DNA of 64,000 bases from an uncultured Chloroflexia bacterium (lineage in GTDB: Bacteria > Chloroflexota > Ktedonobacteria > Ktedonobacterales > JADMIN01): assembly GCA_963840335.1 (NCBI GenBank), contig CAWIYP010000003.1, positions 4,760 to 68,759 of the forward strand, read 5' to 3'. The stretch's first letter is position 1, and each line of letters opens with the position of its first letter. Positions 26,464 through 27,608 of this stretch are shown here, piece by piece. The notes below the pieces were generated by a model. It saw only the letters and a list, made by a program, of their open reading frames with translations. It made no database searches and was not told the origin of the DNA. A program made the position numbers and the translations under genes.

Positions 26464-26766
26464 ATGAAGACTATTCAACCGTTGGGCGACCGCGCGCTGG
26501 TCAAGGTGGTCGCGGCGCCAACACAGACCGCGAGCGGTCTCTACATCCCCGATACGTCGAAGGAGCGCCCCACCGAGGGTGAGGTCGTGGCCGTGGGCGA
26601 TGGCGAGATCATCATCAGCAAGCTGGCGGTGGGAGAGCATGTGCTCTTCCAGAAGTTCGCTGGCGCTGAGATCAAGCTGGACGATGGCGACTATATCATC
26701 CTCAACGAGAGCGACATCCTGGGGCGCATCGTCGAGGTGGAGCAGATTGCGCACGGCGCCGCGTAG
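26464..26766 (+). CDS. groES: GroES/Cpn10 co-chaperonin with no adjacent groEL
   Basis: Reads IQPLGDRALVKVVAAPTQTASGLYIPDTSKERPTEGEVVAVGDG...ILNESDILGRI. RBS CAGGAG upstream. Confidence 0.85.
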   Translation: MKTIQPLGDRALVKVVAAPTQTASGLYIPDTSKERPTEGEVVAVGDGEIIISKLAVGEHVLFQKFAGAEIKLDDGDYIILNESDILGRIVEVEQIAHGAA

Positions 26767-26787
26767 GCGACGCCAGCGAACCGAGCC

Positions 26788-27224
26788 GGGGGCGGCTGAT
26801 GAAGTTTTAGAAAATAGGACGAGCATTTCGCCGTAGCAAGCTGGCGAATACATTCGCGCCTGGATGGCCTGCGGGCCGCGAAGCCCGCCTTCGCGGGCTG
26901 GGTCTCGGCGAACATGGTAGCGGATGAGCAGGCGGATCGTCTGGCGTCGCCTGGTTCTTAGTCCGCGTCGGCGGACTTTGCGGCGGAACGCCATCCAGGC
27001 GCGGTTTCAACCGCCAGCCGCCCCGCGCGGCGCTCGCGTTCATTTCTAAAACATCATAAGCCGCGGCTAGGGGCGTGCGCGCCACGAAGCCTGCCTGCGC
27101 AGGCTGGGTTTCCGGCAGCGCATCGAGTGTCTGGCGGTGTCACAGCGACTGCGAAGGCGGAACCCAGGCCGCGCAGGCGGCCTTTGTGGCGCGCACGCCC
27201 CTAGCCGCGGCTTCAGCCGCCCCC
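26788..27224. repeat. Compound palindromic repeat cluster: an A-type inverted pair with a B-type inverted-pair element nested in its left arm
   Basis: GGGGGCGGCTGA (26788-26799) plus AGCCGCGGCTAGGGG (27059-27073) together equal the reverse complement of the intact right arm 27197-27224. The 259-bp insert at 26800-27058 has 13/14-matching ends TGAAGTTTTAGAAA / TGATGTTTTAGAAA (reverse complement). Confidence 0.8.
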
Positions 27225-27230
27225 GCTTGC

Positions 27231-27608
27231 TTAGTTGCGCCCCGGCTCGCCATCGCCAAAAGCATCGCCGAAATCGTCGCTATCTTCGTCAACACTGAGG
27301 GTGTCGCCCTGGTCGGCGCGATACTCATCGCTGAAGAAGCCCACTTCGGTTCCGTTGTAGGTGTTCACCAGCAAATCCTCGCGCGGCACATCAGCGGAGA
27401 GGACGAGGTCTTCGTCTATCCGCTCGATCAGCCGCGCGATTTGCTCGCGCTCCAGCGTCTTCTCCAGAATCAGCGTGCAGCGGACATCGGTCTGCGTGAA
27501 GTGCAGATCAACCGTCGCGAGGCGCTCGCCTTTGACCATGACGTGGTAGCCCTCGGATGAGGGGGTACGAAAGTGGCGGTCGAACCGCAGTTGATCCAGA
27601 TCGTCCAT
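27231..27608 (-). CDS. Hypothetical acidic protein (125 aa)
   Basis: ORF with coding-like composition; Asp/Glu-rich C-terminus (SVDEDSDDFGDAFGDGE). No family recognised. Confidence 0.55.
   Translation of the reverse strand: MDDLDQLRFDRHFRTPSSEGYHVMVKGERLATVDLHFTQTDVRCTLILEKTLEREQIARLIERIDEDLVLSADVPREDLLVNTYNGTEVGFFSDEYRADQGDTLSVDEDSDDFGDAFGDGEPGRN

Follow-up and report, generated by a model that had tools for sequence, protein, structure and literature searches.

How one arm of a long intergenic palindrome came to be split in two by a second palindrome, and which element did the splitting, are the questions raised by a repeat cluster downstream of groES in an uncultured Ktedonobacterales bacterium (Chloroflexota). 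The cluster (26787-27225) lies in a stretch of 64,000 nucleotides, hereafter the window (G000:C3:4760-68759; coordinates without a contig refer to the window), taken from the metagenome-assembled draft genome G000 (3.38 Mb, 64.5% GC, 40 contigs, 67% complete). The nest is real, in that one palindromic element is cleanly inserted in the arm of another, and it has three levels: an inverted doublet of A-type arms (the A/A doublet) holds a MITE (miniature inverted-repeat transposable element), which itself holds a doublet of B- and B'-type arms (the B/B' doublet). The reading that we consider very probable is that a MITE derived from the IS630 family, which targets the tip hairpin of a REPIN-like doublet, explains this arrangement.

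The geometry of the split arm carries the first part of this argument. The right arm of the A/A doublet (27161-27225, minus strand) is intact and, by repeat finding, motif search and arm alignment, carries the uninterrupted tip hairpin GCGGCTGAAGCCGC; read on the minus strand, positions 27198-27224 give the uninterrupted 27-mer GGGGGCGGCTGAAGCCGCGGCTAGGGG. On the left, as the original prediction had stated, the same string is divided between GGGGGCGGCTGA (26788-26799) and AGCCGCGGCTAGGGG (27059-27073), with 259 nt between them, and the rejoined halves match the partner arm at 27 of 27 positions; within three mismatches the 27-mer occurs once in the window, with none expected in shuffled sequences. 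The outer inverted repeat extends over 53 nt at 91% identity (27058-27110 against 27161-27213) and continues beyond the insert for 13 nt at 100% (26787-26799 against 27213-27225). By the same arm alignment, the left arm is made up of an outer stub (26787-26798, plus strand), which holds the lead and the 5' half of the tip hairpin (CGGGGGCGGCTG) and matches the right-arm end at 12 of 12 positions, and of a remainder (27058-27110, plus strand), which begins with the 3' half of that hairpin (AAGCCGC) and continues into the arm body. A spacer of 50 nt (27111-27160) forms the loop of the doublet, for which the closest paralogue is found at G000:C11:50218-50391 (88.6% identity over 175 nt).

When positions 26799-27057 are removed, the left arm can be aligned without gaps both to the right arm of its own doublet and to seven A-type arms from elsewhere in the genome. 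These uninterrupted arms had been proposed as a test of the split, and they lead to the rejection of a coincidental match and bear out the claim that one palindromic element was discretely inserted into the arm of another. The junction reads GGCTG/ATGAAG...CATCAT/AAGCC, and excision restores the tip hairpin GCGGCTGAAGCCGC. Given that bases 26799 and 27058 are both A, the insert may be bounded at 26799-27057 or at 26800-27058, and either no nucleotide or one is duplicated; in the symmetric reading (ATGAAG...CATCAT, 26799-27057) there is none. An earlier estimate of at most 1-2 nt, with no unambiguous duplication, is thereby narrowed to 0 or 1 nt. What had been missed is that the insert entered a conserved hairpin of 14 nt precisely at its centre, GCGGCTG^AAGCCGC.

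The identity of the insert is given by its ends. Repeat finding places its own inverted ends at 26792-26824 and 27032-27064, and the terminal strings TGAAGTTTTAGAAA (26800-26813) and TGATGTTTTAGAAA (27043-27056, minus strand) are the sole two matches in the window, with 0.02 expected by chance. The ends have the form ATGA(A/T)GTTTTAGAAA followed by about 10 nt, and they correspond to the terminal inverted repeats that bound an IS630-family insertion sequence of 1.17 kb. The left terminal inverted repeat, ATGAAGTTTTAGAAAATAGGACGAGC (26799-26824, plus strand), matches the left ends ATGATGTTTTAGAAT(A/T)AAGGACG found on three contigs of G006 (L015, L016 and L018), a metagenome-assembled genome of the same genus (Ktedonobacterales bacterium GZL_HYHR_2_bin.65), and on the metagenome contig L026 (VFSW01328229.1). 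The right one (27032-27057, minus strand) reads inward as ATGATGTTTTAGAAATGAACGCGAGC, forms the inverted repeat with the left, and resembles the right end of L026, ATGAAGATTTAGAAATTAGGCCGC. In total, the ends of the MITE and of the insertion sequence align over about 25 nt.

The complete insertion sequence of about 1.17 kb is carried by L026, in which a first reading frame holds HTH_29/HTH_32 and a second, overlapping one holds DDE_3 (PF13358, 4.5e-16); its transposase reaches 105.6 bits against the IS630-family model NF033545 (cut-off 100). The two overlapping frames of this transposase (L026:205-1297, with frames at 205-480 and 470-1294) may represent a programmed frameshift or a broken copy. 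In G006, the three contig ends carry ATGATGTTTTAGAATAAAGGACG... followed by the start of an open reading frame (ORF), and also ATGATGTTTTAGAATAAAGGACGTACAGG... followed by a ribosome-binding site and the ORF start (MPTPIQLPLEAEARQALCDLRDHGPKA); a search of that bin did not recover the remainder of the element. Scans of the sequence collections with ATGATGTTTTAGAANNNAGGACG returned only these three contig ends, the full copy of L026 and one chance match in AT-rich DNA (L027), while ATGATGTTTTAGAAA, at no more than one mismatch, is present in 3 of 41 genomes of the family, namely G000 (18 times), G006 (5 times) and G049 (3 times). The Sleeping Beauty transposase, which was returned as a solved-structure match, was non-significant (E = 0.23) and was not used as evidence.

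Between these ends lies the cargo, a B/B' doublet of 179 nt (26840-27018), recognised as an inverted repeat, with a complete tip hairpin on each arm; the presence of this doublet makes the MITE itself a long palindrome. Most B/B' doublets of the genome span only positions ~37-219 of the insert, and the unit of 183-185 nt occurs 27 times without the transposon ends, which indicates that the ends are a separate module. Both ends are found in between 4 (BLAST) and 7 (pattern search) B/B' copies, and one end in 12. The two-ended MITE copies number seven by pattern search, including one duplicate pair, alongside about 12 one-ended remnants, and the copy at this locus is 74-91% identical to the other six. 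The duplicate pair (G000:C14:174404-174678 and C19:35930-36204) is 98% identical, with nearly identical flanks on two contigs, and may reflect a recent segmental duplication or strain variants binned together.

The ORFs that cross the 259 nt are spurious only. The insert is thus a non-coding MITE of the IS630 family with a B/B' doublet as cargo. This revises the original prediction, in which the insert was described as a B/B element and the B-type unit as the mobile one: the insert does behave as a discrete mobile unit, but it is not a plain B/B element, as its GTTTTAGAAA ends belong to an IS630-family insertion sequence. The condition under which that prediction was to fail, B-type copies lacking these ends, applies to the 27 long copies, but not to those with two ends or one. 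Given this, the locus shows the mobility of an IS630-derived MITE, and not that of B doublets in general.

The repeats that host the MITE form a system of their own. BLAST with the A and B parts located about 91 repeat regions in the genome, most commonly ~185 nt long, and their arms were found in 26 of the 31 related genomes searched. The arm catalogue holds four types (A, B, B' and D), each consisting of a short lead and a 14-nt tip hairpin of the form GCGG-N-T-NA-A-N'-CCGC, of which 89 intact copies are present and in which stem positions 5 and 10 covary (T-A, G-C, C-G). Shorter forms of the hairpin are rare, with 7 copies of 13 nt and a single copy of 12 nt. A further palindromic family, the E-type, of ~110 nt and ~14 copies, has the structure AAAGGCCGGCGCACGG...GGGGCTGAAGCCCC...GGCCTTCAGGCCGCGTCCGCGTGCTCCGGCCTTT and occurs at G000:C22:34760-34900, C22:35810-35930, C13:123700-123830 and ~11 more loci, as well as in G006 (L015:110-215), where its central hairpin is also occupied by an IS630-type element.

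Repeated hairpin doublets together with a Y1 transposase gene are the hallmarks of the systems formed by repetitive extragenic palindromic (REP) sequences or REPINs with a REP-associated tyrosine transposase (RAYT) (PMC2817692, PMC3116915, PMC3333891). In G000, a Y1_Tnp gene (C17:72070-72483; PF01797, 3.5e-22) is accompanied by a B arm on its upstream side (71939-72020) and by a B'/B doublet on its downstream side (72470-72645), and it is because of these flanking arms that the A/A, B/B' and D/D doublets are REPIN-like. It is the one repeat-flanked gene among the three Y1_Tnp genes of the genome; the other two Y1_Tnp-like ORFs (G000:C25:148286-148735, 150 aa; C38:90307-90789, 161 aa) have no A or B repeat within 5 kb. 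Degenerate tandem repeats (GGCCCCCTCGCGCTGGCCCCCTGGCTTT and similar) directly follow the downstream B'/B doublet (L001:2050-2210, equivalent to G000:C17:72646-72800).

The resemblance to the REP, BIME and REPIN sequences associated with RAYTs (Nunvar 2010, PMC2817692; Bertels and Rainey 2011, PMC3116915; Ton-Hoang 2012, PMC3333891) lies in the inverted doublets of hairpin units, in their intergenic position, in their number (~90 regions per genome), in their order-wide distribution and in the one flanked Y1 gene. On the other hand, the arms described here are long (~65 nt, in doublets of ~185 nt), belong to several families that have nothing in common beyond the 14-nt tip hairpin and one inner hairpin, and are found in the Chloroflexota (Ktedonobacterales) rather than in the Proteobacteria. 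The Y1 protein differs as well, since it scores above the cut-off on the IS200/IS605 model NF033573 (73.4 bits, cut-off 55) and below it on NF047646, the curated model for REP-associated tyrosine transposases (18 bits, cut-off 80). REP palindromes are adjoined by a conserved GTAG or CGTC tag (PMC3733652); the arm leads of G000 read GCTG, CAGGG or GCGCCA and, by eye, show no constant GTAG or CGTC.

The second part of the argument is the recurrence of the target. G000 has a second clean nest, in which a MITE (C38:74916-75172) interrupts a D/D doublet on its right arm. Excision of this MITE restores GCGGTTGAAACCGC and lets the arm align without gaps to four intact D arms; relative to the hairpin, the MITE has the opposite orientation. 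The hairpin is thus restored exactly at two loci, in neither case with a TA duplication. Among the MITE ends of G000, 15 of 27 adjoin a half hairpin that fits the strict motif [CG][GC]GGNTN, for which the background frequency is 0.0048 per position, and the remaining ends are mostly next to variants of the half hairpin with one or two mismatches. In G006, the copies of the insertion sequence adjoin the first half-hairpin of three different host repeats, with flanks that end in GGCGCGGTTT and GGCGCGGTTG in D-type doublets and in GATGGGGCTT in an E-type repeat (GGGGCT-TC-AGCCCC), and the hairpins struck are the central or tip hairpins of these repeats. One fixed position, the dyad centre of GCGGNT-NA-AN'CCGC or GGGGCT-TC-AGCCCC, is therefore occupied in A, D and E repeats of two genomes.

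The sequences that flank the MITE vary with the host repeat, with the lead GCAGGGGCGGGTA in A arms and GGCGCCAGCGGTTG in D arms, and the bases that adjoin the element are G and A, the commonest loop of the intact hairpins, in four of the six two-ended copies. As the flanks follow the type of host and the adjoining letters are those of the loop, it can be argued that the half hairpins are not part of the element, and the data fit a target choice that would be centred on the palindrome.

Of the alternatives, the one that survives best, improbable as we consider it, is that the half hairpins do belong to the MITE, as an extended terminal inverted repeat of the form GGCGG(C/T)TG-ATGATG..., and that the A-arm junction arose through homologous recombination or chance juxtaposition. 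The 8-14 nt outside ATGATG are indeed alike in most copies, and three elements (C14:174404-174678, C25:5594-5838 and L026) carry the lead and the 5' half on both sides with no arm, while the palindrome that such flanks would imply, GGCGCCAGCGGTTGAAACCGCTGGCGCC, was not found intact in the genome. However, the outer 12 nt at the present locus equal the partner A arm in all positions, including its GGGGG lead and C variant, and are unlike the commonest MITE flank, GCCAGCGGTTG. The flanks also shift with the host repeat among A, D and E types, including GGGGCTT in G006, and the two flanking letters are unequal, as expected of a split GA loop and not of a symmetric terminal repeat. The exact restoration of the canonical 14-nt hairpin at two loci is a further point against this alternative.

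The insertion of an IS630-derived MITE into the tip hairpin also has several points that weigh against it, and the same both-sided copies, to which the near-duplicate C19:35930-36204 is to be added, are the first of them, since simple insertion into an arm does not explain half hairpins on both sides without an arm; nor did the genome yield an intact copy of the matching stand-alone palindrome. In another genus (G049), related elements do not lie in obvious palindromes. No orthologous empty site was obtained, the corresponding region of the congener G004 being too diverged, and no autonomous insertion sequence was found in G000 (no match at E<=1e-30, in a draft that is 67% complete). There is also the matter of the target site: elements of the IS630/Tc1 group insert into TA, which is duplicated (PMC2170065), and at this locus and at C38 no TA duplication is seen (0 nt, at most 1), which would mean either that a divergent mechanism lies behind the family assignment or that the ends have been misread. 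Every junction can also be written as TNA/TGATG...CATCA/TNA, and the flanking N is equal on both sides in three of six autonomous relatives (TCA/TCA and TAA/TAA in G045, TTA/TTA in G049).

An equal N would be in keeping with ordinary targets at which 3 bp, TNA, are duplicated. The flanking N is unequal in L042, L034 and L026, and a TNA rule could produce the hairpin junctions only if the same mutation had happened repeatedly. Models with a duplication of 2 bp (TA or GA), 3 bp (TNA) or 4 bp (TGAA) were set against the two hairpin junctions, and none yields both; only 0 or 1 nt does. For copies in G045 that are 99.7% identical, the orthologous match in G039 ends 156 nt short of the site and provides no empty site.

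The odd flanks and the hybrids probably derive from recombination, either of copies with one another or of the cargo with the host doublet. In three one-ended hybrids (C22:43331-43551, C14:27429-27642 and C13:47952-48174), a half hairpin with an A lead is followed by the right transposon end, then by a B' arm, a spacer and finally an A arm, as if a full nest had lost its middle through recombination between the similar inner hairpins.

Distant IS630 relatives (L034, L036, L040 and L042, from G031 and G045), with 33-38% protein identity and the similar ends ATGCAGTTTTACAAC and ATGAACATTGAC, also lie within short palindromes (GGCCAT-GT-ATGGCC, TGCCCT-GT-AGGGCA and CCCT-NN-AGGG). A wider proposal, which we hold tentatively and regard as possible rather than probable, is that a clade of IS630/Tc1-mariner elements in the Ktedonobacteria abandoned the TA duplication and integrates at the dyad centre of palindromes (T-N^N-A), with REPIN tip hairpins as safe landing sites; the MITEs would then have captured REPIN doublets, so that the Y1/REPIN and DDE/IS630 systems would be built into one another.

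Insertion without a target duplication would also be expected if the Y1 (IS200-like or RAYT-like) transposase had moved the 259-nt palindrome as a REPIN, by single-strand excision and insertion, and it is true that the genome has a Y1 gene with flanking B arms and that B arms lie within the long hairpin which the insert forms. This is nevertheless very unlikely. The boundaries of the insert are IS630-type inverted repeats of ~25 nt and not B arms, and none of the 27 B/B' doublets without those ends is seen to split a hairpin. Y1 elements of the IS200/IS605 type insert strand-specifically 3' of a short target and have no terminal inverted repeats, whereas the MITE is found in both orientations relative to the target hairpin; the low score of the Y1 protein on NF047646 (18 bits against a cut-off of 80) is a further point against it. 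Finally, the joining of repeat copies from different loci or strains into an apparent nest during assembly, for which the fragmented metagenomic draft and an independent Logan contig with the same groES that ends within the repeat might speak, is dismissed as hardly credible, given that the copies differ by 9-26% and can be told apart by short reads, that both junctions fall at one phosphodiester bond of the hairpin, that the architecture recurs at C38 and in the independent assemblies G006 and L026, and that the length of the Logan contig is consistent with the left part of the MITE after the A stub.

Under the preferred reading, insertion of an IS630-derived MITE at the hairpin, the MITE would have been mobilised in trans by a cut-and-paste transposase and would have landed in the 14-nt tip hairpin (GCGGCT-G^A-AGCCGC) with which the left arm of the A/A doublet starts, at the centre of its dyad. 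Such hairpins (GCGGNTNAANCCGC) are, in this reading, the preferred targets of the insertion sequence and its MITEs, in either orientation, and no base is visibly duplicated at them; recognition of the palindrome by the transposase is a step that we infer. As G000 has no autonomous copy, mobilisation in trans in this lineage is proposed from the congener G006. The order of the events, with the MITE entering an existing A/A doublet, and their age would follow from the nest and from the divergence of the copies, which, being only 74-91% alike, suggest that the insertions are old. No function beyond selfish persistence at a neutral site is indicated.

The use of REP hairpins as targets by insertion sequences has been documented in five families (IS3, IS110, IS4, IS256 and IS5), among which IS630 is not listed; examples are IS1397 and ISKpn1 (IS3), IS621, ISPa11, ISPpu9 and ISPpu10 (IS110), and ISRm22 (IS4) (Tobes and Pareja 2006, PMC1525189). 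The present case is similar in the fixed position inside a short, GC-rich and highly repeated extragenic palindrome, which turns the host repeats into nests of mobile DNA. It differs in the family, which lies outside the five surveyed, in that the copies of G000 are mostly non-coding MITEs and not full insertion sequences, and in the insertion point, which is precisely the centre of the dyad and shows no visible duplication. Members of the IS3 family, for example, duplicate 3-4 bp. Insertion into REP hairpins is thus already known, and what is new here is the IS630-type transposon family and the lack of a visible target duplication.

With the IS630/Tc1-mariner elements and the bacterial MITEs (ISY100; Correia and RUP, both cited as IS630-derived in PMC2817692), the elements described here share a transposase with a helix-turn-helix and a DDE_3 domain that passes the NCBIfam IS630 model, a length of ~1.2 kb, terminal inverted repeats of ~25 nt, and short non-coding derivatives that keep the ends alone. 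Unlike them, the target is the T-N^N-A centre of a palindrome, with no TA duplication seen at the two reconstructable sites, and the MITE carries a REPIN-like doublet of its host as cargo. A more distant parallel is provided by nested transposable elements such as those of plants (PMC6911290), in which a repeat within a repeat likewise gives a relative order and a proof of discreteness; by comparison, the nesting described here is driven by the sequence- and structure-specific targeting of a 14-nt hairpin, and its three levels come from two unrelated mobility systems.

For annotation, these results allow the long compound intergenic palindromes of the Ktedonobacterales to be divided into REPIN-like doublets tied to a Y1 gene and an IS630-derived MITE that lands in their hairpins. 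If confirmed by an assay, IS630 would join the families that recognise REP-like structures, and a non-canonical target rule would exist in a family regarded as strictly TA-specific. The effect on the cell is probably small, as the site is convergent and intergenic, a neutral "safe haven" for insertion, and at most the elements may have some effect on the groES transcript at its 3' end. Read outward, the MITE ends (26818-26832, minus strand, and 27025-27039, plus strand) consist of a small GC hairpin and then the T-rich terminal repeat (TTTCTAAAAC), and they score as weakly terminator-like; two such hairpins are within the shuffle expectation (0.9 +/- 0.9).

The cluster occupies the convergent 3' gap between groES (26464-26766, plus strand; 100 aa, Cpn10), taken from the ORF listing, and a downstream ORF (27231-27608, minus strand; 125 aa, with an acidic C-terminus), also from that listing and with orthologues in congeneric genomes, whose stop codon and the A/A doublet's end are 6 nt apart. 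An exact-protein look-up of groES returned a single Logan contig, on which the protein is annotated as Cpn10 and which ends ~97 nt past the stop codon, inside the repeat; the 125-aa protein was not on record in the same look-up. In the congener G004 (contig C75), the orthologues of both genes are kept (~76% identity) around a repeat-free spacer of 125 nt, which shows the entire cluster to be lineage-specific. The proposed comparison of the orthologous region thus provided a site without the repeats, in a sequence whose divergence is too great for an exact empty site. This spacer (L006) holds GACATCCGAGA three times in tandem. In G003 and G010, the order of the genes is different. Searches of the cluster against Rfam gave only sub-threshold matches (plant microRNA precursor families, which are long GC-rich hairpins, and CRISPR-DR28 at 25-28 bits against a threshold of 35), which were set aside as generic matches to hairpins. 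As single-stranded DNA, the whole region of 453 nt is predicted to fold into a three-way structure at -180.8 kcal/mol, with z = -15.8 relative to shuffled sequences.

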